Positions 28,363 to 64,000 of a stretch of 64,000 bases of DNA are shown here, in pieces. The DNA comes from Gnetum montanum. Its lineage: Eukaryota; Plantae; Gnetophyta. The notes below the pieces were generated by a model, which saw only the letters and a list, made by a program, of their open reading frames with translations, ran no database searches and had not been told where the DNA came from. Positions within the stretch are counted from its first letter, which is position 1, and the number at the start of each line of letters is the position of its first letter. Location of the stretch: the NCBI GenBank assembly GCA_015680685.1, contig MNCI01003125.1, positions 100,923 through 164,922 on the forward strand. The letters are read 5' to 3'. The position numbers and the translations under genes were made by a program.

Positions 28363-28538
28363 CTGCATGGGAGTCTCTTTTTTTTCTTTTTTTTTTTAAA
28401 TTTTGAAATTTTGAAATTTTGTACAAGTTTTGCAAACATTGTCAACAGGTGAAAGTTTTGAATGGAATGAAAAACTTCAAGAAAGAAATTGATTTTGCAT
28501 TAACTTATGTATTGTGTAAAGTTTCCATGCTTTCATAT

Positions 28539-28722
28539 GCTAGTTTTAGGTCGTTTCGGGCCTTTGCATAACATGCCAAAAGAATTGTATGTTAATAAAG
28601 AAAAACAAAACAATGCTAGTTTTAGGCCATTTCGTGCCATTGCTAGTTTTAGGCCATTTCGGGCCATTGCTAGTTTTTGGCCGTTTCGGGCCATTGCTAG
28701 TTTTAGGCCGTTTCGGGCCATA
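28539..28722. repeat. 27-bp array of B (1+4 units)
   Basis: gctagttttaggccrtttcgggccatt units. Confidence 0.9.
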
Positions 28723-28837
28723 ATGTAGCATGCCAAAGAATGGCATGTTAGTGAAACAAAAAGTAATGAATGTGTATGGGCTGGCAAGTGGGTGGGAAGT
28801 AGTAGAGTTGCTAGGCTATGCATAGCTACCTCTTGAC

Positions 28838-31800: not shown

Positions 31801-32576
31801 CAACTTTGGAATGGGCGAAGAAGCAAATGGGGCCCACCATGTGGATGGGTCGAGGCTCACCATACATGAATGTAGGAATAGAGACAAAAGTCATGTACGA
31901 TTGTGAAATAGGCATGGTATGAACATGTGGAAGGGTAGCCACGATTGGTGTATGATGTGCTACAGAAATAGAATGCTGAACAGTCGGTAGAGGGATAGTC
32001 ATTAAAAACAACATAGGTGAACTAGGTGAAAGAGGGTGTTGGGACCCCACAAGATTGGCATGGCTACCCATAGCAGATCTAATCGTGGGTTGTGGAAGCG
32101 TAGGCATAATCACAAAGGGAGCGGTGACATACAATGGCTTGGACCAAAAGGACTGGGTAGGAGGGACAGGAACGGGGTTGGTTGGACCTTCCTCGTCTGA
32201 TTGGGAATCAAGTTCCTCCTGTCTATCCTAGAAAGCATCATCTTGGTTGGATGTAGTATCCAATTGCTTCCTAAGCCTAGCCAACTGGATTAATTACTCT
32301 AGAAGCCTTTGGTACACTTGTGTTAAAGGTAAAGAAACGCTAGGAGTAGGAACAAACTCCTTCCCATTGTAGTAAGTGAACTCGAAGCTACATTTTTCCT
32401 TGAGTTCGTGTCAATCTCTCAGGTCCTCGATTTTGGATTCTAAGAGATCAACATGTTTCTAGGATCGGGTTTAGCGGTTGTTCGGCACTAGTAGTGCCTT
32501 GAATCGTGATGGGGTCTTCAATGTTGAAGGGAACTTCCATGTTGAAGACATTGGTGGCAATAGTTGAAAAAGCCAT
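28838..32576 (-). pseudogene. gag: gag-protease of B
   Basis: FCDYHQQCGHNTDYC knuckle, gag core, protease VDDGAA; colinear with A. Confidence 0.92.
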
Positions 32577-32659
32577 TGCAAGCTAAATAGTTTTGTAGAA
32601 AAGTGCAACAAGTGCAAAAAGGAAAAAAGAGATTGAAAGGAAACAAAAAGAAGGCTTCA

Positions 32660-33310
32660 CATCTTGCAGGATCCTAGAGGAATCATTGAGGCAACCGATC
32701 TGCACCACACAAAGCATAAGCAACCACAAAAGGATATCACATTTACACCAGTGTGTGATTAGGTATAGAGCACATGCACGACTATTGCAAGATAGGTAAG
32801 CTAACTAGCGATCAAAGGCTTTGCGTCTCATAGGATCCCAGAGGGACCATCAAAGTGACTGATCTGCACCACGTGAGATGGGGTACAAAATGCATGCAAG
32901 ACTACCGTAAGATAAGCTAGTCAACTGGCAACCAATAAGGCTTTATGTCTTGTAGGATTTCAAAGGAACCTTCAAGGCGACTAGTCTATACCACATGTGA
33001 TGGGGTACAGAACCCATGCAAGACTACTGTAAGATAGGCAAGCTAACTAGTGACCAAGAAGGCTTTATGTCTCGTAGGATTCTAGAGGAACCGTCGGGGC
33101 AACTGGTCTATACCACACATGATGGGGTATAGAACTCATGCAAGACTACTGTAAGATAGGCAAGCTAGTTAACTAGCAATTGGAGGTCTCATGTTCTATA
33201 GGGCTCCAGAGGAACCGTTGAGGCGACCGACTTGCACCGTACAAAGCACAAACAATTGCAAAAGGGTGTCACGTTTACACTTATGCGTATTAAGGTGCAG
33301 AAGGCTCACA
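32660..33310. repeat. ~120-bp tandem array in the 5' UTR of B (~5 units; ~2 units in A at ~17655-17960)
   Basis: Repeated gatggggtac..aa..catgcaagactac.gtaagata...ggctttatgtct..taggat. Confidence 0.85.
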
Positions 33311-33367
33311 GAACTATCATGACATGTGAAAAAGGCACCAAAGGCCCTCCTTCTAGTGCCAGAAAAT

Positions 33368-34931
33368 TGTAGCAACCAAAAACGTCAGTGGTTGAAAAAC
33401 ACTAAGGGGTTTCTAGGCACAATAGTCTCGACCTTGTACTCGCAGGAGGGCCGTGCTGGGTGTGGGTGGATACGGGGCACCCTAAACAGTCTGGTCGATT
33501 AGAAAGGGACTTAATTGGCATCTATATAGCCTTTAGTGGCATATGGTTTTAAAAATGGGGATGAAAACGTGAAATAATACTTGAGAGTAAATAATGCAGA
33601 AAAAATAGTGCAAAACGCAACAATAAGCAGGAAACAAGGTAAAATACAGTTAGAAAAATGCACCACTCTAAAGTTACAAGTTTGCTCTATCAAGGTGGAT
33701 ATAGTTGGTTGCACAGCATGGTAGAGTGTAGAGATCTTGAGAGTAACCAAGACATGTAGAGAAAAATAGGTTGTGTACTTGGGTGTGGCCTTGGGTGCTG
33801 ACAATGTGATGATTCTACCAAGGTGCTAGAAATGGAAACAGAACAAAATGCCAACTAAAGATGCTAAATTTTTGTAGTGTCAAACAGAAATCTTACAATG
33901 CTCAGTGCTCAATGTTATGATGCTTGCTTTTTTTTTTTGAACCTCTAGAGATAATCCAACCCTTTGAGTGCTACTCATCGAGGTATTTATAGGGCTGAAG
34001 GGCATGCGAAAGGGACAATTTGGATGCCATGTGCCCCGGGCCCATGTTGACTTGCTGGCACCACACGTGCCATGTAATACCATTAGACCTGCAAGATCAT
34101 TGTAATGCGAGCCTGTTATGCCATAACTATGAGCCTACCACACCGTAATTGCATCGTCAGCATCTGGAGACATGTGCCAATGGTTCAATTAGGTGAAGTG
34201 CATTGATGTCGCACAACCACTCGCATGCCTTGTTGTGCTTTGTAGCATAGCACCTTGTCATGCGTTCCACTACATGTGTATTGCATGCTTGCTACACTAT
34301 GCTACGCTACATAGCATAGTGACTAGCCTTAGTCACGAAAGATTTGCCAATTTGCAAACTTTGCTTCTTGCGATGTAAGACTTTGCAAACTTTGAGCTAC
34401 CTTCTGTCTCTTCTGCAAGATTGCTATGCCTTGCTACGCTATGTAGCTGAGCGTAGCATAGTAGTAGACATGGTCTGTTGCTTCTTGACAGAAAGGGACA
34501 TTGTTGAAGGACTTGAAATTGGGCAAGGGGACTGGCTGTGAAGCTGTTGCCATGCTATGCTACATCACGTAGCGTAGTGTAGTGTAGCACTTTATTCTAC
34601 AATCATCTTCTGAAGCTTTCTACGCTACATAGTGAGGCATAGCATAGTGTAGCAGACTTCGTGACTTAGAAAACTTGTTGAACAATTTCACGCATGCGGA
34701 ATGCTGTTGCCAACTCCGTGCATCATTTCTGAATAGGCTGTTGGCTGGGCAGGCTACGTAGGTGCACAGGAAGGATGACTCGTAGAGCCTATTTACACCT
34801 AAAGTAGAAATTTTTTTGAACTGGCCGACCTGAATTCATAGCATTCTCCTCTTGAAGAACTGTCATAGTGCTTGCATGAATTACAAGGCCTGGTGAAGCA
34901 AGAATGACTTTGGAATTTTTGGGATGTTTCA
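33368..34931 (-). repeat. 5' LTR of B
   Basis: Adjacent to PBS 33345-33361; TATA at ~33982-33993. Confidence 0.95.
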
Positions 34932-36300: not shown

Positions 36301-39300
36301 GGGGGAGGTCAGGCCAACCCCATCACCATCCCTCCTACCTAGTCCTTCTGGGCCAGTCCATTATCTATCATAGCTCCCTTTGTGATCATGCCTATGCTCC
36401 CACAGCCTACAACTACACTTGTAATGGGTATCCATGTCACCTTCCTAGCGTATCAATGCCCTTATTCCCCTATTTCATTTGCAGCAACTATGCCTCTGCA
36501 AACCGTTCATCAGCCCATTCTTGTAGCACATTACATACAAATCACGGCTACGCTACTGCATGTTCATACTGTACCTACTTCACAGTTGTACGCAACTTCT
36601 GTTTCCCTTCCTACATTCACATTCGTCCCACTAACCACGGCAGGCCCAGGCCCGTCCACATGGTGGACCCCATTCACTTCTTCACCTATTCCGTAATTTT
36701 CGTAGATGTCTCATTATGTTTGCCCTTAGACCTACCAAACCCAGCAAACCATACAACCCAACATGGGGCTATGGTCTGTTCTGCTGGTGACACAAGTGAT
36801 CTATCCAGCAACCCAACCCATGGTTGCCGCTCCAATAGCAGCACCTACCGGGTGGTGGACAACATAAGTAGCACCATTCGCAGGGGCTATCCCAATGGTA
36901 CTGCCGATGGGTCACACTGCCACCCCTTCCATTCCATAGATCTGAGCTACCTTAGAAATTCCCAAATAGTCCACATCGTCGTAGGGTTTGGATCAAGCGT
37001 TCTAGCTTATCCAAACCCTTATCGAGGAAATAAAATTCCTCAAAGCTATCTAATCTAACACAGTACAAGTCATGGACTTTTACCAAGACAACCCTATTAG
37101 CCCTGCAATCCCTAGATTGACATTACCCCTAGGGATGTCCCTCCCCCACTTCACAAAGTACATTGGGGAGGGAGATCTCAATGCACATCTTGTTACCTTT
37201 AGGTCTAAATCCCTTCTATTGCAACAATGGCTGCACATGATTATCCTTGTCTTTGCTATGTCCATAGCTGGGAAAGCCTTGGATTGGTACCTTGTGCTAC
37301 CACACTCATCTATTTCAACCCTAGAGGAGCTACTAACCTAGTTCGTGACACACTTCAAGTATAACTTAAAGGCAGAAACCATGCTGGATCAGTTGATGAG
37401 CATGAAGAAGGATCCTCTAGAACTGGTCCAGAAGTTCATCCAGTGTTGGAGCGCAACCCTTAACAAAATCCACGAGCCCATCACGGAGGACCACTTTCTG
37501 ACCATCTTTAAAGATGCAGTGAATGACTTTATTAAGTCTAAGTTGTACTACCTCACTCCTTGCACTCTTAGTCAATCCTTCGCACAGACCAAGAGTATAC
37601 AGGATGCAGCTAAAGTGAGAAAAGATCCGGCCTACATTACCTACAAACATACCTTCAAAAAGAAGGATAAGGGTAAGGCCCCAACAACCATAGTGGCTGC
37701 TATGGTGACTGAGGCCAAGCCCAAACCTATTAACAATGGTAACAAGAACAAAAAGAAACCAGATGTACCCATAGCTAACCCCGTGCCCAAGTATGGTAAT
37801 GTGCCACAACCTCCAGTACCCGCACCTGAGACATCTGCACAACCCAAACCAAACTTTGAGCATAAAGATCGCTCAAAGTAGACCCCACTACCTCTCAAGC
37901 CTTCAGAACTTTTGAAGCAGCTACTGGTAGCAGGGCACATTCAACATAAGCAGATGTTGGAAGAAGAAATCAGGAGACATCAACGCTACTGTGAGCTCCT
38001 TAGGAACCCCTCTTTGGCCCTACCCAATGAGCCCCCAGTTCCTAAGGATTTCAGGTTAGATAGGTTTTGTGACTACCACCAACAATGTGGTCACAACAAG
38101 GATTATTGTTTGGCGTTGAAGGATGACATTCAAAGGATTATTGATCAGGGGAAACTGATGTTGGATGAAAGCAACCCAATATGCTCTGAGAATCAATCTC
38201 TGCATGTATACATAGACCCCCTCAATGCTAACAACATTAGTTATGTTATCAACACCATCAGCATTGATACTGATCCTATGCCAGCAACCGTTCATGGTTC
38301 ATGTTCCTTAGTGTAGTGCACCAGCATCACCAGTGGTTGGCCAAAGGTCACAACAGCTATTTGTCCTGAGAGTCTATCCTCAGGCATCCACCCCCATGCC
38401 ACCTATTAGCAAAACCATGCCACCCCACCAGTTAACATCGTTAGCTCCGTTTATCATTAGGGGACTGACCCATGAGACAGCCCCCATCCTGTGCAAGATA
38501 GCTAAACAACCTTCTCATCCTAAAAAATGGGTAGTGCATTTTGCAGGTGAGACGTCAAAAGGAAGTACCACCCTTAGTATTTCCAAGCGTACATCTTCAT
38601 CCCCTACATCTATGCCCTCATCACTGAAGAGGGACGTCACCATAACCATACTGTCTATGTCACCATGCCAAGAAGGGTCTAAACCTAGACCTGAAATTGC
38701 CCCTCCTTGAGAAATTTGTCTTCTAGGACAAATAGAAGAGGAGAAAAGGGTTAAAAAGGGGGGTAGCCAGGACCTCTTGGATGCCCTCAGTTAGGTCAAA
38801 AAAGCTCTAAAATAGAAAAGCACTACATTGAGCTTGTACAACCTAATCATGACATCCGTCCCACACTGTGAGGCTCTAATCCACATGTTGACAATGATTC
38901 TGGTCAGCAAAGACATGCTAGCGGAAGAGGAAGTGATCCACTTGGTCATGCTTCCCTCTACACCTACAAAGCCAGAATCATCTCAACTAACTTTCTATGA
39001 TGATGCTATCAGGGAAGATCCCGAAATGGGCCAGGTGACTACAGCACCCCTATTCATCAAAATTTGGGTCAGCCAACATTGGATCTAAAGGGTACAAGTT
39101 GATGATGGGGCTGCCATGAACGTCATCTCTTTCCCTATTGTAGAAAAGTTAGGCTTGGTTGACCAGATCAAACCCACAATGATGTCATGCCTAAGGTCAT
39201 TCAATGGGGCGCGAGTCGTAGTGAAAGGCATGATCCACATAGGCTTCGTGGTAGGGGATTAGTTCCCTACAAACGCGACATTCATCATGGTCGAGGAGAT

Positions 39301-39661
39301 GCTTGGGTTTAACCTGATCTTGGGAAGATCATGGTTAGCACAACTTAGGACTATCTCTTTGTCCATTCACTAGGAAATTCACCTACCATACGTAGGTAGG
39401 GAGGTGGTGATCCATGGTGACAAGGTAGCAGTGCAAGCAAGTAATAACATAGACATGGAGTAGGACTCAGAGGTAGTAACCTCTAAGAATGAAGTGCCTT
39501 CTTACGCATGCACTAATCATCTAGTGGGAGAATCAGCTCAGCAAGCCAGTTACCAAAACGAAAGTGCATGAGCTAAGTTGCCCTTCCATGTGGGGGACAA
39601 TGATGCAAATGAAGGCCCTGGAAAAGCACCTTGGCCTTACATTCCACTCAACCTATGATGG
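36301..39661 (+). pseudogene. gag: gag-protease of C
   Basis: ORFs 37072-38316 carry the gag core and FCDYHQQCGHNKDYC; VQVDDGAAMNV protease at ~39090-39125. Confidence 0.92.
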
Positions 39662-39825
39662 GTCAAGAAGTAGCTATGCATAGCATAGCAACCTCATTGC
39701 TTCCTACCCAGTTGCCATCCTTTGTACATTACCATATTTTGTTGTCTGCATCCATATGTCTACGAAAGTTTCCAGTTAGCTGTTGTTCAAGTTGTTAACG
39801 TATCATCTCTTTAGCATGCTACGTA

Positions 39826-40133
39826 GAGGCCCAAAATGGCCTAAAACTAGCTATGAGCTAAAATGGCCTAAAACTATGCTATGAAGAGGCCTGAAATGGC
39901 CTAAAACTAGCAATGGCCTGAAATGGCCTAAAAATAGCTATGACCCGAAATGGCCTAAAACTAGCTATGGCCCAAAATAGCCTAAAACTAGCTATGGCCC
40001 GAAATGGCCCGAAACTAGCAATGGCCTGAAATGGTCTAAAACTATGCTATGATACAAACCAAAATGCCTTAAAACTAGCTATAGCCAAAAATGGCCTAAA
40101 ACTATCAGTAGCCCGAAATGGCATAAAACTAGC
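39826..40133. repeat. 27-bp array of C (~10-11 units)
   Basis: ggcccgaaatggcctaaaactagc(ta/aa)t units. Confidence 0.92.
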
Positions 40134-40310
40134 ACATAAAAGCATGAACATTTTACACAAAACATAGCATGTAGATAATGCACGAGTTAGCACAAAATCA
40201 ATTTTCATTCCCGAAGTTCTCTTTTCTTTATTCAAAACTATTGTCTTTGAAGCAATGTTTGCAAAAATTTTACAAAAATTAAAAATTTCAAAAAAAAAAC
40301 TCTCATGCTA

Positions 40311-43300
40311 TCATGGGTTGTCTCTGCCTTCATCATCTTCGTCATTCCCTCTTGCATCAACTTCTTTTGCATCGCCTTCCCCTACGTTGTCCCCTGCTGA
40401 CTCTTCATTCCTTCTCTCTATGGGCCCTGCACCCTCATCCGGAGCCTGCATTGTAGAAATGAAGCCGTTAGCTAAAGCAATGCAAGCAAGATATAATAGA
40501 GCATAAGAATTAACACAATAGAAAGCAACCAACCTGAGCTGGACCCATGTCCATATCGAAGGGTATCCAGTCTAAACCGAGCCTAAGGAGGTGCTAGACC
40601 TCCTCTGCCATGATGTCCACCCAATGCTTATTGCTTGGTTTAGCATCTATAGCAACTCTCTCCCTTTTAGCAGTCATCCACCTCGATGGTCCTAGAGAAA
40701 AGGAGACAATTGCTGTCTCTCTTATGGAAAAGTCCACTTTCCAGTTAGGAGATTTTGTAACCTTTAACTACTCTTTGAACTTTGCATAGGCCTCAGAAAC
40801 ATCAATGGCATTTACGAATGCTTTACACATAAATGCCTCCATAGCAATGTCCCTATATAGTTTACGATAGGTGGCATGTTTCAGTTTATACATATGTTTA
40901 TGATTTTTCTGGGATTGCCCCCCATTTGTAAACCTTGGCACTAAAATCTTTGAAATACTGACATTTCTAGGCTAACAAGTCCATTTGCATCTACTGTTCT
41001 ATTATTTCCTAGGTGGCTTCAACATTTTGACGTGCGACTGTTCAAAATTTGGCATAATCTATTATAGCCATGCGTCAATCCTCATTATTAGTATCACGGG
41101 CTATGAGGAATTCGTTCCTTGACTTGAGATCCTCCACCTCGGCGCTCAGGTTGACCTTCTCTTACTTAGCTTTTTGGACCTGTTTCCACAGGTCCTCATT
41201 GATCCACTTATACTCCCACAAGGAGAATGCCGAGTGCAAAGCACATTTGCAAGCCTCTTCGTATGCGCAATGAGACACCTTGTTCACTTCAGGTGGGAAT
41301 GTAGGCATGACACTGACTTTCAAAGATCGTGTCCTATCCCATTTGAGTCGAGAGGCTACCATGACACAAAGAGCATGTTAGTCACATTAGCATAGTAAAG
41401 ATTAACAAATTTGAAAACTCTAGCATAGCAAGATGAGAGAACCTATCACTACTACTTACCTACTTCAAGGTCCACCTGCTGAAGGTGGTTGATCATGTCA
41501 TCGACGATTCCCTGCATGAACGCAAACTTATCAGGGATCTCGGCCCATGATTCCACATGAATTGGAGGGGGTCCTATAGCATCAATAGTGGTGCCTATCA
41601 TATAACTAAATGTGTCAACAATGATCGAAATGGGCTATGATAAGGTAGAAATATTTTTGAACTCACTAGCATCCAATTGCGGCCCCCCTTCCTTCTGATG
41701 CAAAATGATGATGATAGCCTTGGCAGAGGTCCTTGCCAAGTCTGTACAAGCCTCTTTTTCATGTGTTGGTGCCTTTCCTTTTGATAGACCAACATATTTT
41801 TTATTCAAGGGAGACTCCTCTTCATCTCCAAAAATACCTTCCTCATTAGTAGGAAGATTCTACCTAATGACGAGAGCCCCTACCTTAGCGATAGGAGCTC
41901 CTTTCTTCTTGACCAGGGCCGTTTCTTCTGAGACTGGGGCCTCTGTGTCTTAGGGGTCAACACCTCTTCATCACCTTCTTTGTCTTCCTCTTCTTCTTCT
42001 ATCAGCAAAGAAACATGTTTGCATTAGCTCAAAACAAGTTAGCTTAAAGTAGGCGCTACATTATGCTACGCCGTCTAGCATAGCTGGCATTAACAAAGTA
42101 AGTGAATGAATAAACATGAACAAAAGAATTTAACAATGGGGGGCTGCATCCTTTGTAGCTTAAGCTGTAGTATTTGCCCCTCCTCTTCCTCTGTGTGAAG
42201 GGTTTCCTTAGCTAGAGAAGGTCTTATCCACTACAAGTTACTGGCCGTAGTCTCGGCTATGAGAGGCTCCCCCTGTGACACGCTACTGGCTACAGCAGGG
42301 GCATCTCTCCTATGTTTTCTTGGCCATGAAAGTTGTGGGCCATCTGATCCTTAGTTGTTACAGAGAACAACTCCCCAATTATTTCTAGGGGATCTTGGGC
42401 TTGGGTGATCCAAAGGATCTAGTGGATCCACAGTTTGGAAATTTGGTCATGATTTCACATGACCTAGGTTCCATTCTCATGAACTACCAGAAACTCAGTG
42501 AAATGCTTCAGAAAGGCTATGTAAAAGGCATCATGTATATTGGAACGGGACTCAAGTTTCTTATGGAGCCCAAAAATTTCAGCTTGCAAGCCTTTACACA
42601 AAAAATTAGCCTAGTTGTAGCAGGTCCCTTACTTCATGATCTCACGCATTACCTAGGCCTGCTCAATCCCCAAGACCTGCCCTTGGGAAAGCAGCTGGGG
42701 AATGCACAAGCACGAAAGATAGGGTAAACCTCCTTGGCAGGTCCTACTTTAAGCTTCTCCATGGGAAGCCCCTTCTGCTCCTTGGCAATCCTTAACCATT
42801 CCTGAATGTTCTTCTTCTAAAGGGTCAGCTCCTTCCTGGACTTTGACCCTATGAGGACACCATCAGCAAGGATGTTGAAAAGATCTATGAATAGCTAGTC
42901 ATTGATTTCAATGACCACCCATACATCCTATATATGCGTGCAGAAGTAGCTTTCCTTGTTGGAAAAGGAGTTGACCAAGGAGAGCATCTCGACAGTAGGA
43001 ATGCTTGGATTTAGGGCCAGGAATAGATCCATAAGCCTAGCATTTTGGATATTCTAGACCAAGGAGTTTGAAGCTGCACCATTTATCCAGCATTGGCTTG
43101 TATCTACTTCTCTGTACTTAAAGTAGATGTTTGCCTCCTGTGTCTCGATGGTCACCACCATCACCTCCAAGGCCTTTTTCACCTCTATAGCAATTTTCAC
43201 AAGAAATGTTTAGCATAAAAACATAGAAAACATAAAATATTGCAAAGACACTTAGGCATGCATACACTTATTTTTTAGCTTACTAGGTCTGTATGGCAAC

Positions 43301-44756
43301 GGGAACGGTAGAATACTAACTAGAAATTATTCAATAGTGACCGGTTTGAAGGGTGCCCATCCCTCATCCAACCAACCACTCTCCTTGCACCTATTGTAGG
43401 GAATGGGGTATAGGTCCGGGTAGCTATGGTATTCACCCCCGCATTGACCAATCACAATTGCACATAGGTTCTCAGCAGAAGAGAACTGTTGCAGGGCTAT
43501 CTGTGCTATAGTCAACAGACCTGTTTGGTCGTGAAGCCCATCCTTGTTGATGTAAAACCTAGTAACAAAAACATACTATTAGAGTTTGGCTAATATAGTA
43601 AGCGTCGCATAATACAGCAGAATAGGGCTACAAAACTCACCCGCCAACACAGTAGATCTTCCCAGGTGGGTTTTGGAAGCACGTTGCCATATAACGTGCA
43701 ATGAACAATGTGTTGTAACGATGGTAGCAACTGTACTCAGGCATATCCTAGATCCAGGCCAAATGCCTTAACTCTATGAGGCATTAATTGGATCCTTCTC
43801 CCTACCTATTAAAGATTGTCCTATTCGTCAAAAACCTCAGGATGCCTTGGCTTGCCCTAGGCAATAGAAATTCTATTATGATGGCTACCTCTTCCTCCTC
43901 TAAGTATGAACCAGTGATCACACTGAAGTGTTGGAGGAGGTATTGTAGGAACTCGTGTGCTCCTTTCCTGAACTAGACTCCCTGCTCCCCCACACGTATA
44001 TTGGGAGGAGGAACATTGGCCACAGGTTTGCCTACATAACATAGGACCCCTGCAATTTCTAAGATAATCAGAATTGGCCTTAGCCCCATCCTTCACAACA
44101 CACCCAGCAAGTGTTAGCATCATGTCCAAGTGCAATGCATATGCAACATAGCAATACCTAACATTTCATGCATATAGCGTAGCATAACCCTCTTCCCGCA
44201 CATAACGTAGTAAGAACATGAAAGCGATAGTGTAGCAAAAATAGACTAGCATAGCAATATAGGGATTAATTCTAACAGGGCGATTAACAATATGCCCTAA
44301 CAAAACATGTGTCACACTATCACATCACACATGGCCAAGCCCTCCTAAGGGTCCTATGCTATGCCATTCGAAATCCAAGTAACTTAAACTGTCCAACACC
44401 CACCGTTATGGCAACCGCAGCAGTGGTGGTTTAGGTGGCCTTGCATGCAACGTCAACATAGTGTCTGTGCATTCACTGTGGCTGAAATGAAAACAACGAT
44501 GGTGCAAAGGCTAACAAAATGACAACGTGATGATAGAAAACATGAATAACTAAAGCTGAATCATAGAATGAAAGCAGAAAATAAAAAAAATGATAACAGA
44601 ATCATGAGGAAGCAAAGGAAGCATAGAAGCCTACCGGGTCAACGACGTGTCCTCCCATGTCACAATGCTCACTGGTGTCACATGCCCTAGGGTTTTCTTT
44701 ACCTCCTCAATCTTTTCAAGTGCTAAGTGAGTATGTTCTTTCTTTGGAGGCATCAT
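40311..44756 (-). pseudogene. Antisense accessory gene of C
   Basis: MMPPKKEHTHL start; RPILIILEIAGVLC; intron 43559-43640 (GG|GTGAGT..TAG|G); ends GRDNP*. Confidence 0.8.
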
Positions 44757-45270
44757 CCTACTTGTAGAAGTTTCCTCATTACTATGCAAAGAACTACCTT
44801 GCTCGCTGTTAGCACAATTGCTCTATGCTCCAAAATTGCTTTATGCTTCGAATATGGGCTCTTCGCTCTTATGGTGAGAATGACAAGCTTACTAGGGTTT
44901 AATCCCTATTTATAACTATAATGGTGAAAAAGGAAAACTTGCCACACTCTCTCTCCGTTTAATGCAGAGTGAGCCATGCAGTGTAGCATGCTCGCCACAA
45001 CATCGTAGCAGTGTTGGCATTAAAACCTTGGCATGCTTCAAGCTAACTGTTTGCTTTCCCAAAAAATGATATATATATATATATATATTTGTTATGGGTC
45101 CAAAAAGACCTTAAACTAGCAACCCCAGCGTAGCANCTTTAAACTGAAAAAATTTTAATCTTTACATCATACTTCACTAGTTATAGCTTGTCATTGCTTT
45201 ACAAGATTTTGTTATTCAAGATTACTACCAATAGGTGCCTCTTAACCAAGCTTTCATTTCATTCTAATAG

Positions 45271-48715: not shown

Positions 48716-50323
48716 AGCATGAACACTATAAGCATTGTCTACTATGACGTAAAATTGGCACAGCTCGTCTGCTATGATGTAAAACTGGCAAAGTTGACAA
48801 TCATCCGCTACGATGTAAAACTGGCACCTACAGTCTGCTGGGACCTTAAACTAGCACAACTCATTTGCTATGACATAAAATTGGCATAGCTTGTATGCTA
48901 CGATGTAAAACTAGCACAACACATCTGCTATGATATTAAACTAGCACATATGGTCTGCTGGGACCTTAAACCAGTACATGGTCTACCAAGATCTTAAACT
49001 AGATTTACGACACTCCCCAGCATGCACCTACACTAATCACACCATCAAGCAAGCATGCACAATGCTAATGTGGGGTGGAACGTTGTAGTTCCAGGATGCA
49101 GTCCACGATGCACTGAGAACACGATCTGGAACATATGCAATGTTGCTAGCCCTTGCATCTTATTGATCCCCTGGAGGTGTCGTATGACGTCTCACTAACC
49201 CCCTAGACCTACTGTTGCCATGAACCATTACCCTAATGGTAGTTCCTTGGTTAGTGCCTACTGCTGGAGTTCCTGCAGTATTGTGGCCTAGCCAAAATAT
49301 TATTACCCTCTAGATCCCTACTAGCGTCTAGGCTCAAGCGACATTTAGCTATGTGATAGCTGATCCCATAGTTGAACTAAGCATGCATGCCTTTGGTAGA
49401 GATTCTAGAGCATCCGCACTCATAGAAACTCCCTGCTCCTTTGATGCTGGCTCCTCCATGTTGATGTTGCCAAGGCCGCTGCTGGCCTTTCTAGTTTGGA
49501 CACCATACACTAGCAAAGGTGTCCAAGAGCTTCAACAACATCTACAGTAAGCAAGACCTTTGCCCTCATTTTGCATCATGGCTATTTTGCTCTCTATCGT
49601 GTTTGTAGGTTGCGGCCAAAGGTGCGTCTCGCCACAGTAGCAAATGCTACAGCATTGTGAAGTGGTTTTCTTAGCTAGCTTAGCTACCTTAGAGTGCACA
49701 TCCTGCCCTACCATCTATGCCCCTTCCCTTTACCTTGCTTCTCACATCCACAATTCCTACTTGTGCCCCTCTTTTACAAGCTTTTTCCAATGCCTATTAA
49801 GCCCTTCTATTTGCTCAACTGCAAAGTTCATGATGTGCATAACATAGCTTGCCACATGGGAAGCATTTGTAGGTAGGTTAAAGCCCCCACGTGGATGTAA
49901 CACAACTCATCCAGGGAAAGAAACACCTATCCTACAGCAAGGTTATTCGAAAATGTAAATGGAAAAACAACAAAGGACAAAAGTGTAAGAGAGCATAAGC
50001 CATTTCACAATCACCCTTCTCACACGTTCCAACAAAGAGGTAGAAGGTCAAAAAAAGTAAAGATGAAAATGCAAATGACTCCCTCATGAGCACTTTGATG
50101 AGGGACTCTACTAAGCCTAGTCTTTATCCTTTTCCTAAGCATCTTTTCTCCCTACTTTGCCCTTTCCCCTTGCAAAAAACCAATGCAACACTCTCAAGCA
50201 CAGCTAAGCGACATCTTGATGATCATTGAACAACAATGTTAGTGTTTTGTCTTCTATGGTGTTTTCTATTCTTTGTCAACATCTATCGGGCTCCTCCTCC
50301 AGATGTCGACAAAGAGGAACCAA

Positions 50324-51809: not shown

Positions 51810-51872
51810 TCAGGCAACATGAAGCCCTTACTCTGTGCAACATGAGCAGTATAACTTACTCTGTCTCAAGTT

Positions 51873-52109
51873 TTGGCCTAGCAACATGAGCAATATAACT
51901 TACTCTGTGCAAAGGTTTAGGAAAACCTACCTTTGGATGTGCACAAATTCGAAGATAAACATAGCTTCGAGTTTGCTTACTACAATGGGAAGGAGTTTGT
52001 TCCCACTCCTAATGCTTCCATACCTTTGACATAGATGAATCAATGGCTTCTAGACTAGCTAATCCACTTGGCTAGACTTAGGAAGTAGTAGGAAACAATA
52101 TCTAACCAT
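51873..52109 (+). pseudogene. gag: Isolated 5' gag fragment of the A/C family
   Basis: Matches the reverse complement of A ~17215-17450 and also 1017-1137. Confidence 0.85.
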
Positions 52110-53075
52110 ATTTCATTATGAGGATGGCTTTAGTGTAGCCTGTGGTGATGAGCATCACATCTCTTGAAGCAACTATAGCTGTAATAAAGGTAAAAACATT
52201 ATTAATATCATGCAAAGGTAAATCAACAAGCATATGTAAGAAGTCAAAATGATAAATTCTTATATGGAACAAATGACATGTGAGATGGAGCTGGTGATGT
52301 AAGAAGCTCCTCAAGGTTGAGTTCACCACCAACCCATTCCTTGTCAAGCTAATCATAGGTCTTGCACAACCTAAATTCCTTTATGTAGTAGATAGGGTAA
52401 TCATTTAGATCAACTCACAACTACTCTAGGATGGCCTCCCAAATTTTCAAACTAGAGGAGAACACCTCTAGGGAAATACAAGTCAAGGAAAGAGCCTTGT
52501 CCTCATCATGGAGACCCTGGTCATCAACTTTGAATCTAGCATTAAGAATGAGCAGTAAGTGGTTAGCAAACTTAGCATGAACCAATAGCAAAAAATATAA
52601 TGCAAAAATCATAGGAGCACTTACCCTCCAATGTAGTATACCATTCTAGATGGATTTTGGAAGAAGGTATGCATGCGCAGAGAAACAAAGAGGATGTTGA
52701 TCTTGTTGTAGCAAGAGAACTTTGGCATTTGCCAAATCTTGGATAAGGGATGAGTGCCCCTAGGGCCTTAGCCCAAACCATGTGCTCTATCATCACTGTT
52801 AGTGGGCTCATTGGACATAAATCTCAATATGTATTGGTTGGCCTTGGGTAGCAATGTCTTAGTGATGACAGTCATAGCCTCCACTACTAAGTATGATTAC
52901 ATCATCAGACTAAAGTGCTATAACAGAAACTCTAGGAACTCACGTGCTCCTAGTTGGAATGACACTACCTGATAACCCACCCACATATTTGGCATAGGCA
53001 TGTTGGGCATCAGCTCACTCTTGTAACAGAGAATGTGAATAAGGTCCATAACAACTAGGATGGGCTTTAGTAACA
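52110..53075 (-). pseudogene. Antisense accessory gene of diverged element D (FCP1-like exon and following exon)
   Basis: PILVVMDLIHILCY..SFQLGAREFLEFLL*HFS..IWQMPKFSCYNKINILFV..FFQNPSRMVYYIG|gtaagt; intron 52536-52624; next exon GFKVDDQGLHDE. Confidence 0.78.
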
Positions 53076-55260
53076 CTTTGCAACTGCAAAAGCAACATAC
53101 AAAGCATTAGTATACACTAGATACAAAAATACTTTAAATTAAACTTAGAAAAAATTAGAATGAAACAACATAGGTTAACAAAAATATCTTAAGGCCCTTA
53201 TGGCCTCACAGGTATAGGATGTCAACATATACATTTGATGCACCTGGTATTCACTAGGGCATAGCATGTTTCACATAGCATTAGCATTTTGTTCCACATG
53301 TTTGCATATTTAGTGTTATAGATTGCATGTTTTGGCAATTTAGCATTAGCATTAGCATTTTACATTTCAAAAGCTTACCATTTTACATAGAATTTTTTAA
53401 TTTTTTTCTAAATTTGGATAGTGTAGTTTGGAAAACTACAAAAAAGAAATTCTAACTCTTGGTTACCCCTTGGAGGAGCAGAGTCTAGAAAAATGTAAAT
53501 ATTTCAAATTCTAACTCATATTGACTATGCTTTGGAGACTGCAGAGTGTATTCATAGTTTGAAAATAAATTATAACTACCAGCTACACTCCCCCCCTCCC
53601 CCAAAAAAACTAATTGGCCACATGTACTAAGCGTTAGCCACAGCTATGGCCCCTACAACCACACCAACAATGTTGTCGCATGTCACACCGCTTGCTTTGC
53701 CTAGTCAAAAAATAGAGGGTGCAGAAAACATGCCCTTGGGCCCTACATCTCCCCTTAGACCTTGCCATGCCAAGGTGAAACACACAATGCCCCCATGCCT
53801 TAGTTTACATAACCCTCGTTCATGTGTTCATAGGGAAAATAAGATTGTGGAAATTGTAAAAACATGGTAGAAACCCTTTGCTACATCCCTATCCCATGGC
53901 CTATCATATTGGCTATTGTTGATGCTCTCATCCTTGTCCTTGCCTTGCACCTAAAATTTTTAAAATTCTAAAAACAAAAAAAAATGATAGTCCCCTACTA
54001 CAACCTTGCCTTATAGTGAGACACTCGTGGTGACCACCAACACCTACTCCCATCCTGTGCACAAAAAAAAACACAAAAATAATTGCAAAAAATCATCACA
54101 CCTTAGCCTCGTAGGTGGTAGCCCTAAGGTAGCCACCAAACCCTAATCCCCTACCTTATGCAAAAAATCCCTTAAAATAGAAAAAAAATTGTAGAGCCCA
54201 CTACCATGCCCTTTGACCCTATGGATGGAAGCTATTGGTAGTCACTATTTAGACCTAAATTCCTACCCATGTGATGAAAAAGAATTTTTAGAAACAAATT
54301 TTTTTTAAAAAAACCCTATGTAGGCCTATGGCCTTCTCATCTATGGCAATGTAGGCTACTGTAGTGGCCATGACCTTCACTTTGTCCTTGTTGCACAAAA
54401 AGCCCACACTCATCAAAACCCCCATCCAACCTCAAACCCATCATAAAAACTAGAAATCCTTTTCCCATGCATGTGCATGCCCTCCTTGGCTATAGCATCT
54501 ATAATGTCCATGGCAGCGGTGGACCTTGCCATAGCAAGGTGCCATCAAAACTAAGCCCCAAACCCTAAAAGAAATGATCAAAGTAAGGCAAAGAAAAATG
54601 AAATAGGGGGAGCATAGTTAGGGTACTTGGTGGATGGTGGTGCCCTCTGTTCCTCCACATGTGCCACAATAGGCATCCCAGTGCTTGCTCTCCCTCATCC
54701 ATGTTGGTCAGTCCAAGGTGTTGGCATCCAATTTGGCATGACATTCTAGTGACTATGCTCTTCCAACTATGCTATACTCTAAAAAGTTTGCATTTTCAAC
54801 TTTGACAATGATAAATTTACTTAAGGTGAAATGCACTTTTATATTCCCTAGGACCACTTAATGTTTCACTAACCCGAAGACTATGCTCAACAGTGCGAAG
54901 CATAGTTGGGTGAGAGCATAATCACCAGACTTAGAAAATTTCTTGATTTTTCTGGCCATCCTAGACTTAGAAAAATTTTATATTTTTCTCATTGCCTAGT
55001 GAATGCCCAGTCTAACTTTGCATCCCAAGTGCTCTCTACCTTGCTTAAATATGCATCTAGCACATATAATAGTTTGCTAAGACCTTAAATTGGCATCCAT
55101 CACTTACCAAGGCCAAAAACTAGCCCATGCATTTCTTACTTTTTTAACATCATATGTGCATATTTAGGAAAAATTTTATTACATTGTTTTTCTTCATTTT
55201 TATGCATATTGCTCTTGCTAACATAGGTGTAGCTTGACATTTTTCTAGTTGTCTTTGTAG

Positions 55261-58200
55261 GATTTCGGTAGGATTTTTATCATGACTATGTTTGAGCATC
55301 TTCACTCACCTCTAGTCCTCATTGGTCCCCATGATGATTTCATGTGATTCATTGACCTACAATGCCTAGACCTTAAGCCCATAGCCTATGATGAATACAT
55401 AACATCTGTAGAGGCACTACTAGACTAGCCTTACCATCTAGTTAGGGCTCTAGATCTAGAGGTAGGTAATGTCATTGAGGATTTCCTCATTGAAATCCTT
55501 GTAGCAACACCTAGTGGTGAGGCAAAGGCATTGAAACTTAGTTCTTTTCTAGAGCCTCAACATGTCCAAAATTTTAAAAAAATACTTAATGAAAACATCA
55601 AGGCATTCACATGCTCTTACGAAGACATGCCATGCCTAAATCTTTTTGTAGTGTAGCACAACATAATCATTGATCCTAGCATAAAACTAGTTAAGAAAAA
55701 AGCTCACAAGTCTATGCCTGAGGTGGCATTGGTAGTCCATGATGAAATTACTAGGCTCTACAAAGTTGGGCTCATCTAGGCCATTGACTATGTAGACTGG
55801 GTCTCCAACATCATGGTTGTACCCAAGAAAAATAAAAGTATACATATTTGCATAGACTTCTAGGACCTTAATAAGGAAACCATTAAAGATGACTTCCCAT
55901 TTCCTAGTATTGATCAATTGATCGATACTACGGCTGGTCATACCTTATTATTCTTCATGGATGGGTTGTTGGGTTACAACTAGATTCACATCAACCTAGA
56001 GCACTAGCTTAGTACTACCTTTATGACCCCTTGGGGTACATTCTATTATACAATGATGTCCTTTGGACTTAAGAATGTAGGAGTGACTTATCAACAAGCC
56101 ATGATGTACATTTTTAGTGACTAGTTATTAGGTTTGCTCAATGATTACATTGATGACATAGTAGTTACGTATAAAGTAGCACATAACCATGTAGATGACT
56201 TGGGCCTTGTACTCAAATGTTTTCTGAAGCATAAACTTAGGTTAAATTCTAAGAAATGTGTATTCAGCCTCAAGATATGCTAAAGGCTAGGTTTCATAGT
56301 ATCCAAGGTAGGCACACATGTAGACCCTACTAAGGTCAAGGCCATTATCAACTTAGCACCATTGGCTAACCTTAAGGAGCTATGAGGGTTACAAGGTAGA
56401 TTACAATTTATATGTAGGTTTGTTCAATTGTTGACTAACAAGTTATAGCTAATGAGACACTTACTTAAAAAGGGGTTCACTTTGAGTGGATGGTTTAATG
56501 CTAATAGACATTTGACAACCTTAATCAAGAGCTAGCTCAACTTCCAATGGTCTACCCTTTGCAGGGAGATAAACCTTTCTACATCTACCTTGCTATCTTT
56601 GACACATCCATCACTTCTTTGCTTTGCAAAAAGTGAGACAATGGTATAGAGGACTTAGTATACTACCTAAGCCATGCATTAATTTCCTATGAAGTAAAGT
56701 ATAACAATGTGAAAAAGAATTGCCTCACCTTAGTCTTCACACTTAAGAAGTGGAGGCATTATCTTTTCTACAGCCAAGTCAATATCATTTGCAAGAGCAA
56801 TGTACTCCAAGAAATTACAATGAACATCTACAAAAGCAATTGCATTGCATATTGGAAAGTAATAATTATGGAGTTTGACTTGCATTACATTGCACACACA
56901 TCAACCAAAGGTCATGTAATAGCCACACAACTTATGGATTCCCCAATCGATGATCAAGTAGTAATAGATGTAGAATTTTTGGATGAGCATGTCACTAGCA
57001 TAAGTTTAGTGTTCTCCACTTGGGAGATCTGATCCTTTGCATATTATTTTACATTTCAATGCACTAACAATGTGGTAGAGTATGAAGGTCTCCTCTAGGG
57101 TATCTTAGTAGCTCATGACCTAGGAATACAAAAGCTAGTAATTCAAGGTGATTTGCAGTTGGTTGTCAACCAAGTCATATAGGTTTACACTTGCAAAGCC
57201 AAACATTTGTAACCTTACTATGACTTAGAAAAGCACTTGCTTAAAGAATTTTCAACTACTGATGTTTAGCATATCCCATGCAATGAAAATGCCATTGTCG
57301 ATGCCTTAGTGATGTTAGCCTTAAGCATTGCACTTGATATGTTTCACGCATTGTCCACCTTAGTGGTGGACTACACTGTGCCTATTACACATAAAATAGA
57401 AATTACATCCATAGCCATAGTAAGCACAACCCATGCAATAGAGTGGAATGACAACATTAAGGTGTACCTTGTATAGGGTGAACCTCTATAGCATCTAACC
57501 ACTGCCCAAAAGGATGTGGTGTGAAAGTGATCATGATAGTACATCATTGTGGGTGATTGCACATTGCGTCACAAATCCTATGATGAGATACTATTGACCT
57601 ATGTTAGAAACATTAAAGCATAGATAATCATGGAACAAGTCTAGAAGGGACTGTGTAGAGGCCATATAACACCTAGGGAAATCGTGGCAAAGATTAGATG
57701 CTTAGGTTACTATTGGCCTTACATGAAGCATGATTGCTTCTCCGAGGTCAATATGTGCAACACTTGTTAATGACATGGTTACTTAATGCATGTGCCAGCA
57801 ACTGAACTACATAAAACATAGATCATGTGGCCATTCCAACACTGGAAGTTAGACATCAAAGGGTCAATAACACCTAAGTCTTCTATAGGACATAGTTTCA
57901 TTATAACTACAATTGAGTATTTTACAAAGTGCGTTGAGGCTATTTTCCTTAGGAAGAATACATTGTAGTAGGTCTACAAAGTTTTACTTGATAACATAGT
58001 AATCCATTTTGGTTTACCCATGACCATAGTCACAAAAAATGGGTCATGGTTTAGCAGTGTTGAAACCAAAGCCTTTTGTGAGTGCTTCGAAATCAAACAT
58101 TTCTTTTTGTTGCCTTACTAACCATAGGAAAATGGCCAAGTAGATACCATAAAGAAGGTCATCATCAATCTTCTAAAAAAGATTCTTAGCAGCTGTAGAT

Positions 58201-58572
58201 TGTGATGGCATGAGCAACTGATCTATCCACTCTAGGCCTACTACACAACATGTAGAATTGCAATAGTTAAGATACCATATAGCTTGGTTTACAAGTTTGA
58301 ATCAATCTTGCCTCTTGAATTGTAGGTCCCATCACTTTGAGTAATCCTATCAAGCTTCATCAATGAGGTTCAAAATGACAAGTTTAGGACCATGGACCTC
58401 GATTCAATAGAGAAGGAGCACATGTTGACAGTTGATTGTATCAAGTGGTACCAACAAATGCAATGGCAAAAGCACTACCACAATCAACACCAATGCCTAA
58501 TCAAGAAAGGGGACCTAGTCCTAAAGGCTATTTGTAAACATGCAAACAAATTCTCAACCAACTAGGAAGGCC
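55261..58572 (+). pseudogene. pol: pol of element D (older, diverged Tat family member; INT C-terminus and aRH N-terminus deleted)
   Basis: DWVSNIMVVPKK, KDDFPFPSIDQLID, NDYIDD, LKKWRHY, TNNVVEYEGL, GDLQLVVNQV, integrase core; preceded by gtctttgtag acceptor-like site. Confidence 0.9.
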
Positions 58573-59099
58573 TAAAACTGGCAACACGTGGCCTGCTAAG
58601 GCCTTAAACTGGTGGCTTGATAAGGCCTTAAGTTAAAAATACCTTTATAATATATTTCTTATTTAACTTTTTTATAGCTATTATGCCTTATTTTAAATTT
58701 TATTTGCATAATTAGTTTACATTTTACTTTACCAACTATTGTCCTATAGTGTTATGTTTCATTAATGTAGCTATGTAACATGAATAAACCTTAGAATACA
58801 TAAGATGCATAAAACTACAAATGCTATAACATATAAGAAAAATTAAAATTTTAAAATAAAAAATAATTATAATAAAATTGTCCATAATCCACAGCCATAG
58901 CCACATAATATAATGAAAGTTCAATAACAAATGACATATAAAATAAATAAGAGTCTAATATCCATGGCTACACTGTGTACCAATAAAATAAGTAAAAACA
59001 AAAAATATCATAATAACTAATGGCTAGAAATAGCTAATGAATATGAAATTTAATAACAATTACACCATAATAGCAATAACAAGAATAGCCAAGGGCATG

Positions 59100-61629: not shown

Positions 61630-62670
61630 TGTAACGACGGAAAACGTCGGCAGCTGGAAATACCGATCGAGATTCCGCGTACACAGTTTTTACCACGGAT
61701 CCGCGCGAGGGCTAAGCTGGAAAAACGAATCCGCGGTGCCCTGAACGGTCTTGTCGATCAGACAGGGACTTACGGGTCAGTAAAACAATGATAATTGTAG
61801 ATCGACCGCAAAACGGTGGGATAACAATGTGTGTGGACCACCGCGAAGATGACGCCGAAATACCGAGAAGATGCAAATCGGGAGCAGAAAATCGTGCAAT
61901 TTACGAAGATCAAAGATCTATGTTCCAATGCCAAATGGAATATATGATTGGATGTATACAATGTTACAATGGGAGGAAATTCCCAACAAACTGAGTACAA
62001 AAATGAGCACAAAACAGCAAGAAAACTGTCTAGACAGAACAACGGATCTACCTTTTGGACCAAGGCCTAGATGCAGAAATGGTCAAGCAATTTCCGTTCC
62101 GCTTCTCGGCTTCAGATAGATCTGCTGCTAGGAGCTCCTGCATGCTGTGTTCTATTGCTGCTGAAGAATGATGTCTGCGGCCAAGAGGTTGCTCTTGTTT
62201 CTCTGTTTCAGGGCAATAAGTTTCCCTTGCTCAGAAAATGCTCTTGTCCTCTTGGTCTCTGTCAAAGTGCTAAGTCTGTATATTTTTCAAAAATCCCCCT
62301 TTTGTATATTTGTCAGTTGGAGTATTTATAGACCACGACATGTGAAACCCTGATGATGTGGGCCCGAATGTCGCGGGTTTCGCCGATGCGATTCTTTTAA
62401 GTCGAACTGCGACTACGCACAACACGCTTGTTCGCGTGCTGTGCGTGTAAAGAGCAGGCTCACGATAGACATGTCTCGGCTGCGTTTGCGCTCATTCGCG
62501 TTGTGTTTGCGTGTATGAGCGCAACTTTGGCGTAGCAACAACACGCTTAAGATTGTTGTACGCTCATCACGCAACTGTGCGTGACGCAGCGTAAGTGTAA
62601 CACACTCCATGCAGCTACACGCGGTGGAGTATGATCAAAGTGTAGCTTACGCTCATCACGCAGCTGTGCG
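61630..62670 (-). mobile_element. Element E: partial 3' LTR of a young related family
   Basis: tgtaacgacggaaaacgtcggcagctggaaa..gcgcgagggc..gtgccctgaac..cgatcagacagggactta parallels the A/B LTR terminus; TATA (ctataaatact on -) at 62321-62331; CpG-rich. Confidence 0.85.
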
Positions 62671-63875
62671 TTGGAATTTCTGCAGTTCCTGCTGCGTAAT
62701 TTCAGCATCATCATCTGGTCAAACGTGACCGGAGATGTTGCTGGTGCCGTTCTGGAGCACCTGTTGCCAGGGTCTTCGCAGGGGATTCTGGCCTACCTGA
62801 CAGATGGGGCGGTTGAGACGGGCAATCCCGAGGACCGAACTCTCAGCTCTCGGGGTCTGAGGAACTTGCGATGGATCTGGGACATGGAGCGTTTCAACTG
62901 CTACCACGAATACAATACGCTTTTCATGGCCCGCCATGTGTCGACATATTTCCAAAACCCGCAAGGCACAGTATTTTACGCAGGCGGGTAAGCAGATCTG
63001 GATAACTATGCCTAATGTTATAATGTATAAAGGTCTATCTGTATAATGTGGCTAAATTTACGCTGTATTTGACAGATTTTTTATACGTGATGGCCAGCTG
63101 CTCGGTGAAGGCGACACGCTGTCCTGTGCCGAAAGGGCAATAACAGAGTTCACCGTGACGAACAACGTTCGCGCCGGGGTCATCGGGCAAATCGGCCATG
63201 AGATGCGTGAGTACCACTCACGCTATGCGGAAGCCTTCCAAAAGTGCAAAGACCTCGGATGGCTGCACGAGGATTGGACACTGGATCCGCCCCTCAGCAT
63301 CGAGGACGTGGCAATTGAGCTTCTGCAATTCCCGCTGCCGTTTGGCCCCGGGAAGGCTGTTGCGTCTTTGTGTCATGCGCGTATATGTCATGCGTATATG
63401 TGACTTGTATTCTGTCTTACAGTTAGGGAATCTCAGGAGATTACCCTCACAATTTCCGGCCGCGAGGCGAGAGATGTCCTCTTCAGATATGGGGACATCA
63501 AGGAGGCGCAGCGGTGGCTTAGCCACGCGGCGGCCCCGGCTGTGGTGGTCGCCAACCTCCAGACCGCGGGGCTGCTACACCTGTTCCTGGCCACTACTCC
63601 TGACGTTCCCGCCAGTGAAATGATCGGCCTGGTGAACTCCTTCAACGTGAAGGCCGACCGCTTCAGCACGCGCGTGCATAACGTGCGTGTGAACTTCGAC
63701 ATCAACGCGCAGGTCTTTTCGGACCTATTTGGCATCCCTGCTGGTGGCCTTCCCGTGGACGTGAAGGCACAGAGGGGTGCCAAAGTGGAGGAGCTTTTGC
63801 AGGAGTGGGCGAAAATCCCTAAAGACCAGAAGGGATTCCCTTGCGAGAAATTCGCGCTGCCGACCGCCAAGACGC
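62668..63875 (+). CDS. Stop-free exons of the accessory gene in E (5'-truncated)
   Basis: Exon 62668-62987, intron 62988-63075 (GG|GTAAGC..ACAG|A), exon GFFIRDG..KCKDLGWLHEDW..LPFGP, acceptor at 63422, exon ..LFLA..VPASEMIGLVNSF..DINAQVFSDLFGIPAGG..DQKGFP; aligns with the A/B/C peptides; second donor is not canonical. Confidence 0.8.
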
Positions 63876-64000
63876 NACGCGAGGCGAGAGATGTCCTCTT
63901 CCGATATGGGGACATCAAGGAGGCGCAGCGGTGGCTTAGCCACGCGGCGGCCCCCGCTGTGGTGGTCGCCAACCTCCAGACCGCAGGGCTGCTGCACCTG

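Follow-up and report, generated by a model that had tools for sequence, protein, structure and literature searches.

A gene with introns, antisense to gag-pol, is very probably a selected component of Tat-clade Ty3/gypsy LTR retrotransposons in Gnetum montanum, where four element copies (A, B, C and D) have it between protease and reverse transcriptase (RT); its product is likely a nuclear accessory protein. We found it in a window of 64,000 nucleotides (contig MNCI01003125.1, positions 100,923 to 164,922), which is a nest of such elements. A fifth copy, E, enters at the end of the window.

The host elements

Pfam matches in the window comprised gag, protease, RT, RNase H (RH), a second RNase H (aRH; RVT_3) and integrase (INT; rve). 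The domain order, read in A-D, is gag, protease, antisense gene, RT, RH, aRH and INT. An aRH between RH and INT is the order of the Tat clade; it is also the order by which Ogre elements are recognised, and is common to Retand. In each of A, B, C and D, the antisense gene runs against pol and is found upstream of RT. The gag-protease region, lost in D, has the gene downstream of it in the other three. The pol of E is outside the window, and the position of the E gene relative to protease and RT cannot be seen. The elements and domains located were:

1186 to 36295, minus strand: element A, with LTRs at 1186-2891 and at 18013-18344 plus the rest to 36295, and target site duplication (TSD) CTGAC/CTGAT
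4670 to 8121, minus strand: pol of element A (RT, RNase H, RVT_3 and integrase, by Pfam)
18345 to 34931, minus strand: element B, with LTRs 84% identical (1312/1562) and TSD AAAGG/AAATG
39050 to 39400, plus strand: protease of C (Pfam aspartyl protease, E 9e-4)
55297 to 58595, plus strand: pol of D (Pfam), beside the D gene remnant

The LTR pair of A is identical at 1442 of 1678 positions (86%) and is flanked by a 5-bp TSD; paired LTRs with a TSD were found for A and B, the ends of D and E being missing. A is inserted in the gag of C, and B is nested in the 5′ LTR of A. An internal deletion in B at about 24270 (24268-24280) removed some 1.7 kb relative to A, comprising the start of RT and the start exon of the gene. 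In D, exon 3 is truncated after 27 codons and continues into sequence that resembles what precedes gag in A (51810-52096); this break is an internal deletion. The 3′ LTR of C also ends short at 51810-52096. Six bp from the 5′ LTR of both A and B there is a TGG-led candidate primer-binding site, which may fit tRNA-Arg, the primer of Ogre elements. A scan of the window for tRNA genes found none. The nearest named RT was that of yew (54% identical), and the neighbours of exon 3 in the Atlas belong to Streptophyta.

Several further features of the nest were observed. A 345-bp unit is duplicated at 98% inside the 3′ LTR of B (18582-19276); this duplication either arose long after the element itself or is an artefact of assembly. 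Tandem arrays of 30, 66 and 96 bp follow integrase in A and C, and a 122-bp array lies near the primer site of B (arrays at 4240-4650, 32754-33167 and 48737-48959, in the A, B and C elements); arrays of this kind have been reported for large Tat elements. Between 59300 and 61629, decayed minus-strand coding pieces, intron-broken and transposase-like by eye, flank the LTR of E, and a plus-strand ORF within this interval had no Pfam match.

The antisense gene model

Comparison of A, B and C gave a model of six predicted exons and five introns, antisense to gag-pol. A start exon of 122 bp, which ends in phase 2 and begins MMAPKK in A and MMPPKK in C, is followed by a NIF-like exon (exon 1), a 91-codon exon (exon 2), an exon of about 350 codons (exon 3), an acidic exon (exon 4) and a last exon (exon 5), which is coiled-coil-like by eye and has a provisional 3′ end. 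The copies read as follows:

8904 to 12900, plus strand: A gene, start exon at 8904-9025
9026-9552, 10002-10083, 10327-10425 (acceptor AA), 11478 to about 11622, and 12182-12285, plus strand: introns of the A gene
24625 to 27950, plus strand: B gene, start exon deleted
25075-25156 (3′ end AA), 25391-25487, 26543-26676 and 27214-27317, plus strand: introns of the B gene
40760 to 44756, minus strand: C gene, start at 44756
43559-43640, 43185-43283 and 41356-41459, among others, minus strand: introns of the C gene
52096 to 53083, minus strand: D gene remnant, with exon 1, intron 52536-52624, exon 2, intron 52179-52263 and an exon-3 stub
61630 to 62671, minus strand: LTR-like sequence of E, aligning to the LTR end of A, outer end at 61630
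62668 to 62987, plus strand: E exon 1, NIF/FCP1-like, 5′ 44 codons missing, no stops
62988 to 63075, plus strand: E intron 1, phase 2, GTAAGC..TGACAG, GC 0.33
63076 to 63350, plus strand: E exon 2, stop-free over 91 whole codons, matching no family
63351 to 63422, plus strand: position of E intron 2, phase 1, 72 bp, AG acceptor present, donor reads GG
63423 to 63875, plus strand: first ~150 codons of E exon 3, no stops, cut by an N at 63876

Intron 2 is in phase 1 in all five copies, and its donor is GT in A, B and C, AT in D (52179-52263) and GG in E. Intron 4 runs from GT to AG and measures exactly 104 bp in each of A, B and C.

Intron 1 in the five copies

The first-pass annotation had placed an intron at the end of the FCP1-like exon in five copies, and all five intervals were borne out as given; it did not state the strand, which is minus for the antisense genes of C and D. 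As had been claimed, the intron measures 82-89 bp (82 bp in A, B and C, 89 bp in D, 88 bp in E) and stands at the same codon position. It is in phase 2 in five of five copies (GG|G or GG|A, giving Gly, then Phe), with a GT donor in all of them and an AG acceptor in four, the acceptor reading AA in B. Reading through it leads to an immediate in-frame TGA or TAA in each copy, and in-frame homology picks up again 82-89 bp past the donor in all five. Judged by these reading frames and splice sites, intron 1 in the five copies is real. The peptide motifs said to accompany it needed some correction. Exon 1 was described as ending Y(F/C/Y)(V/A/I)GG, which does not fit E, where it ends FYAGG. Phe does follow in all copies, but the G of the supposed "G-F" start of the next exon belongs to the split codon. 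FQNP, reported to persist, is interrupted by a stop in B; CK..GWL.E.W is whole in A, C and E and not in the other copies; and EM..LVNSF, given for A, B and E, is indeed there and is present in C too.

Smith-Waterman alignment against 300 shuffles found the peptides of D and E to be homologous to those of the other copies, well above chance in exon 1, where z was 36.9-64.8 in seven of seven pairs. For exon 2, z was 4.2-31.9, and six of the seven pairs, all save D-A, beat every shuffle. Exon 3 of E aligned to the peptides of A, B and C with z of 41-51, and the 27-codon stub of D with z of 0.5-3.9, of which the significance is not clear. Exon by exon, the residues that E has in common with A, B or C are 47-50 of 106 (exon 1), 28-33 of 76-91 (exon 2) and 47-56 of 147 (exon 3). 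DNA alignment of D and E had been called poor, but over 90 nt their exon DNA aligns above chance (identity 0.54-0.63, z 6.5-11.7). The introns are not as conserved as the exons: the interior of E intron 1 compares with the other four at shuffle level (z -0.2 to 0.5), while the 90 nt of exon adjoining it align above chance with all four (z 6.9-11.7). Intron 1 of D shows a weak likeness to that of A only (z 3.7). The introns of A, B and C are homologous to one another (z 8-16), and the five copies thus represent three independent lineages (ABC, D and E).

Selection on the gene

The gene had been proposed to be old and under purifying selection, which holds between element lineages but not for the present copies. 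In pairwise codon models, omega was 0.39 (A-B) and 0.40 (B-C), each below 1 with p<1e-8. Values for E against A, B and C were about 0.11 (p<1e-8) and are rough, synonymous sites being saturated (dS about 4.9); those for pairs with D were 0.03-0.09 and equally rough, with dS saturated. The codons of D and E were aligned through proteins, which biases toward low omega, and 21 codon columns at the beginning of A exon 2, which a deletion misaligns, were excluded. Between A and C omega was 0.88 (p=0.54), and by this measure the two sister copies are in neutral decay after insertion; in their pol, two of three domains were also near-neutral (0.77-0.79), with RH at 0.46.

Identity at second codon positions was 0.63-0.82, against 0.33-0.64 at third positions. 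Both halves of exon 3 and exon 5 had omega of 0.45-0.46, no selection was seen in exon 4 (0.88, p=0.63), and intron 0 gave 0.91-1.61 across its three frames. Synonymous distances of the gene agree with those of pol (0.64 vs 0.50-0.70 for A-B, 0.16 vs 0.15-0.25 for A-C), which indicates that the gene travelled with the element. Taken from these codon comparisons, the gene was kept under purifying selection while the families diverged.

In a six-frame control (C vs B), omega dropped below 1 in just two frames, that of the gene (0.38) and, on the opposite strand, its codon-mirror (0.48). The latter value could hint that the exons are conserved only through gag-pol coding on the other strand and that the introns are a product of chance. 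A mirror effect is, however, expected from shared third positions, and the gene frame is the lower of the two; the NIF match also belongs to the gene frame, which has GT..AG sites in corresponding phases at five introns and stays open across the three exons of E while frames shift at each intron. Conservation through the other strand is therefore extremely improbable.

We also considered that a host gene or a DNA transposon (MULE, CACTA or Helitron) was captured in the PROT-RT spacer and rides there as a passenger, its selection predating the capture. The multi-intron structure and the NIF domain do look host-like, and related short motifs are found at both spacer ends in A. Yet these motifs are direct, not inverted, there is no convincing terminal inverted repeat (best 24 nt, 75%), Pfam found no transposase family match, and families that split when the gene was already there compare at omega below 1 (A-B 0.39, dS equal to that of pol). 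Capture of a passenger is thus very unlikely, and we treat the gene as part of the element.

Domains of the predicted protein

Exon 1 of A matched the Pfam family PF03031 (NIF) with 22.7 bits, above the cut-off of 21.8, and was the only one of the five copies to pass; B (15.2 bits), C (17.8) and E (16.5) stayed below the threshold, and D had no match. The matches span only positions 2-93 of the 160 in the profile, and exon 1 is unmatched to NIF in its C-terminal half. In the Atlas, exon 1 reached 0.94, and 30 of 30 hits were NIF. Structure models were of low confidence for both exon 1 (mean pLDDT 43, best fold-search Z 2.5) and exon 3 (pLDDT 48, best Z 4.5).

The catalytic motif of NIF/FCP1 proteins is DxDx(T/V). 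At the corresponding site, B reads K-I-R, A reads E-I-V, C reads E-I-A and D reads D-L-I, and the region is absent in E. An intact Asp-x-Asp is found in none of the four copies that have the region, all of them decayed, with D keeping one Asp. From these residues, the NIF-like domain is predicted to be inactive. If living elements encoded an active HAD-type phosphatase, the missing Asp residues would merely reflect decay of dead copies; the state of A-D, with 7-13 stops each, would agree with this, as would the Asp kept by D and the fact that E, the young copy, is without the region. Against it, A and C both have Glu and B has Lys, the second Asp occurs in 0/4 copies, and the C-terminal half of exon 1 is without a NIF match. 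We consider an active enzyme quite unlikely and keep to a domain predicted to be inactive.

Exon 3 scored 0.93-0.94 in the Atlas to unnamed plant proteins, and one cluster at 0.90 has DUF1985 on 10% of its members. No Pfam match to the plant mobile domain-type family PMD (PF10536) was obtained in the gene; the exon-3 stretch ..SLVNSF..F....D.F..P.DG presumably resembles PMD. Exon 1 and exon 3 showed no relationship to each other. Comparisons with longer proteins confirmed 0 of 932 candidates for E exon 3 and yielded 0 of 7994 for the exon-1 alignment, pattern scans of metagenomes confirmed 0 of 428 and 0 of 145 matches, and a PDB sequence search with the exon-1 profile gave 0 matches. E exon 1 searched against 1.84 billion representatives gave five hits, all of them repeat proteins reached through summed stretches, and these were rejected as artefacts.

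Copy E

E had been reported to be without stops in three exons, and we counted 0 stops in its 344 aligned codons, as compared with 8/379 in A, 13/376 in B, 9/391 in C and 7/267 in D; at the stop rates of A-C, this has p<0.001. The CpG observed/expected ratio is 0.95 in E vs 0.05-0.34 in the other copies, and its value in E points to a young copy. The E family is very abundant, with 13,012 matching DNA contig records. The proposal that E is the best model of the functional protein is only partly right. No copy is less decayed, yet E is incomplete: the start exon is missing, as are 44 codons at the beginning of exon 1, it has ~150 of the ~350 codons of exon 3, and exons 4-5 are outside the window. 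When the start exon and the 44 codons were sought in E, best scores were 24-37, below shuffle maxima of 38-51, while the same start-region queries scored 93-213 on C, which served as positive control. At 63876-64000, an N is followed by a 119/124 copy of 63460-63583, which looks like an overlap at an assembly or scaffold join and not a real duplication.

A 24-bp repeat (62559-62582 / 62648-62671, 96% identical) marks the point at which the LTR of E passes into exon 1, and at the outer end of the LTR reads carry unrelated loose ends before 61629/61630. E is probably a young internal-deletion copy in which LTR sequence was joined to mid-exon 1. Alternatively, E could represent a separate intact lineage, with a shortened gene beside the 3′ LTR, an LTR promoter and another intron-2 donor. 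E is stop-free, CpG-rich and strongly constrained, antisense genes beside the 3′ LTR are a common layout (PMC7264820), and an AG|GC at 63356 and GTs at 63372 and 63381 exist. However, there is no in-frame ATG before codon 84, the join falls on the 24-bp LTR repeat, the LTR boundary and purine tract of A and B were not seen in E, and the in-phase GTs near the donor would leave introns of only 51, 42 or 36 bp. Depth of DNA contigs, a coarse measure, is also reduced at the join, where it is 5066 as against 22200 and 43742 in the adjoining bins. A separate lineage is on balance unlikely, and the internal-deletion reading is preferred.

Both DNA contigs and RNA reads reach by far their greatest depth at the LTR end (61630-61775) that A, B and E have in common, and the flanks of this end vary. 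A dip in DNA depth over intron 1 (2909 vs 5066-43742 in exon 1, at 88% likeness) was set aside, parts of exons 2 and 3 being equally low.

Transcript data

No run recorded as RNA among those listed contains this stretch, which speaks neither for nor against transcription. RNA sampling covered about 2% of run X20, 26% of X23 and the contigs of X14. Splice junctions of E were found in 0 of 292 X20 reads, 119 X23 reads and 26 X14 contigs, where depth over intron 1 was <1 and uninformative on splicing. The X20 reads over the E gene were strand-biased (summed bin depth 47.2 vs 0.65), in the direction that is the gene's own strand in most stranded libraries, the library type of X20 being unrecorded; most of these reads are 90-95% alike, i.e., from relatives.

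A candidate sense-strand intron and a proposed mechanism

Between protease and RT, the sense strand contains candidate introns:

8134 to 13803, minus strand: candidate sense-strand intron of A, 5670 bp, GT..AG in phase 0, with the antisense gene entirely inside it
39662 to 45270, plus strand: candidate sense-strand intron of C, 5609 bp

The donor is a phase-0 GT three codons before a shared stop, after protease, in A, B and C, and its sequence GTCAAG is a weak match; in A, C and D, the acceptor is a phase-0 AG that is preceded by a pyrimidine tract and stands shortly ahead of the RT frame.

The motif TGCTAGTTT is found at either end of the A spacer (8386-8574 and 13505-13639) without change of orientation, as spaced copies at one end and as a 27-bp tandem array at the other. 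The 27-bp array is also found in B (28614-28721) and C (39830-40133).

We propose that the genomic RNA, being the other strand, would carry the splice sites of the gene as CT..AC, leaving them unspliced, and that the introns would thereby survive reverse transcription, the antisense gene being spliced only from its own antisense transcript. Following established biology, the introns most likely persist by virtue of pointing opposite to the RNA that serves as template for reverse transcription; an intron in the same direction as that RNA is lost on retrotransposition, which is the basis of classic reporter assays (PMC12786077, in its accessible part). The gene would itself lie inside a sense-strand intron like that of Ogre, whose removal from a subset of transcripts would join GAG-PROT to RT, and unspliced sense RNA would be packaged. 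Gag-pol would then not be broken by the gene, because the gene sits in a sense-strand intron.

The protein itself would combine a basic MAPKK-type start, a NIF-like module without both catalytic Asp residues, a PMD/DUF1985-like middle, an acidic linker and a coiled-coil-like end. Tentatively, it may be a non-catalytic nuclear adaptor that favours transcription or integration of the element. Rather doubtful as a whole is the fuller reading, in which an undescribed Tat lineage carries a five-intron antisense gene in a pol-regulating intron, encoding a fusion of a pseudo-phosphatase (captured, RNA-polymerase-II-CTD-phosphatase-like) with a PMD-like part that counters silencing or boosts transcription.

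Comparison with known systems

Antisense extra genes in such elements are known. In the open-access literature, with a keyword search of supplements, no report was found of an extra gene placed between protease and RT or of one with a NIF domain, and files 1 and 3 of PMC6317226 may hold such elements. Our elements resemble Ogre in the order RT-RH-aRH-INT, the 5-bp TSD and the large size, as Ogre is described in the available portions of two papers (PMC6317226, PMC4408406). The same portions describe the non-coding stretch that separates GAG-PROT from RT in Ogre as an intron, spliced in pea and Medicago. The Ogre intron is spliced in a subset of transcripts and has a mean length of 274 bp (PMC6317226, available text), whereas the spacer here is 5.6 kb and holds an extra gene with five predicted introns and a NIF-like exon. 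Ogre-related lineages also have extra ORFs with a PMD plus a coiled coil (excerpts of PMC6317226 and PMC4408406); there, extra ORFs are classed as 5′ of gag or 3′ of pol, whereas the gene here is between PROT and RT.

Antisense extra ORFs are common in Tat elements, where they are classed as 5′ or 3′ of gag-pol (PMC6317226, accessible part), and those in plant LTR retrotransposons are described as ORFs without an assigned function (PMC7264820). Like our gene, gene23 of Grande and the ORFs of RIRE2 and Retand (TRP28) are antisense to gag-pol and kept in most copies; according to the available text of PMC7264820 and PMC11963269, they are conserved like pol, have their own transcript and have a proposed nuclear regulatory role. 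The Retand paper describes ORFs, and the word "intron" is absent from its accessible text (PMC11963269); likewise, NIF is not among the domains that the available part of PMC6317226 lists as found in at least five elements. The ORFs of Grande, RIRE2 and Retand lie between pol and the 3′ LTR, whereas the gene here is upstream of RT in A-D. The E gene does abut LTR sequence, but E appears deleted, unlike the regular placement of the aORF-3R type.

The brtn gene of Boty/BcGypsy1 from Botrytis reportedly bears introns. It is likewise an additional antisense gene in a Ty3/gypsy element (PMC7264820, PMC8365987, as far as their accessible text goes), but the element is fungal, the gene is 3′ of pol and the protein is unrelated. 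In orchids, a host AlkB-type demethylase has been fixed in the extra ORF of Tat/Ogre-like elements (PMC9289625, available part); that enzyme is active and Gag-Pol is one ORF, whereas here the domain looks inactive and the gene is intron-split. With the FCP1/SCP family of HAD phosphatases (NIF, PF03031), exon 1 shares a partial match to the N-terminal half of NIF and has no intact catalytic motif. MAIL3, a PMD-PP7 protein that acts in TE silencing, also joins a phosphatase-type domain to a mobile-element domain (PMC7156037, in excerpt), but PP7 is another class of phosphatase, and the PMD here is only putative.

Surveys detect extra genes as long ORFs of at least 250 codons, 5′ or 3′ of gag-pol (PMC6317226, accessible text), and a multi-exon gene between protease and RT would therefore be missed. 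A 2020 review calls for looking for antisense and spliced transcripts (PMC7264820). To the question of what antisense extra genes do in plant retrotransposons, this gene brings splice sites, a selection signal and a domain. It shows how introns can last in an element that multiplies by way of RNA, and may extend the positions of extra genes in retrotransposons to a third.
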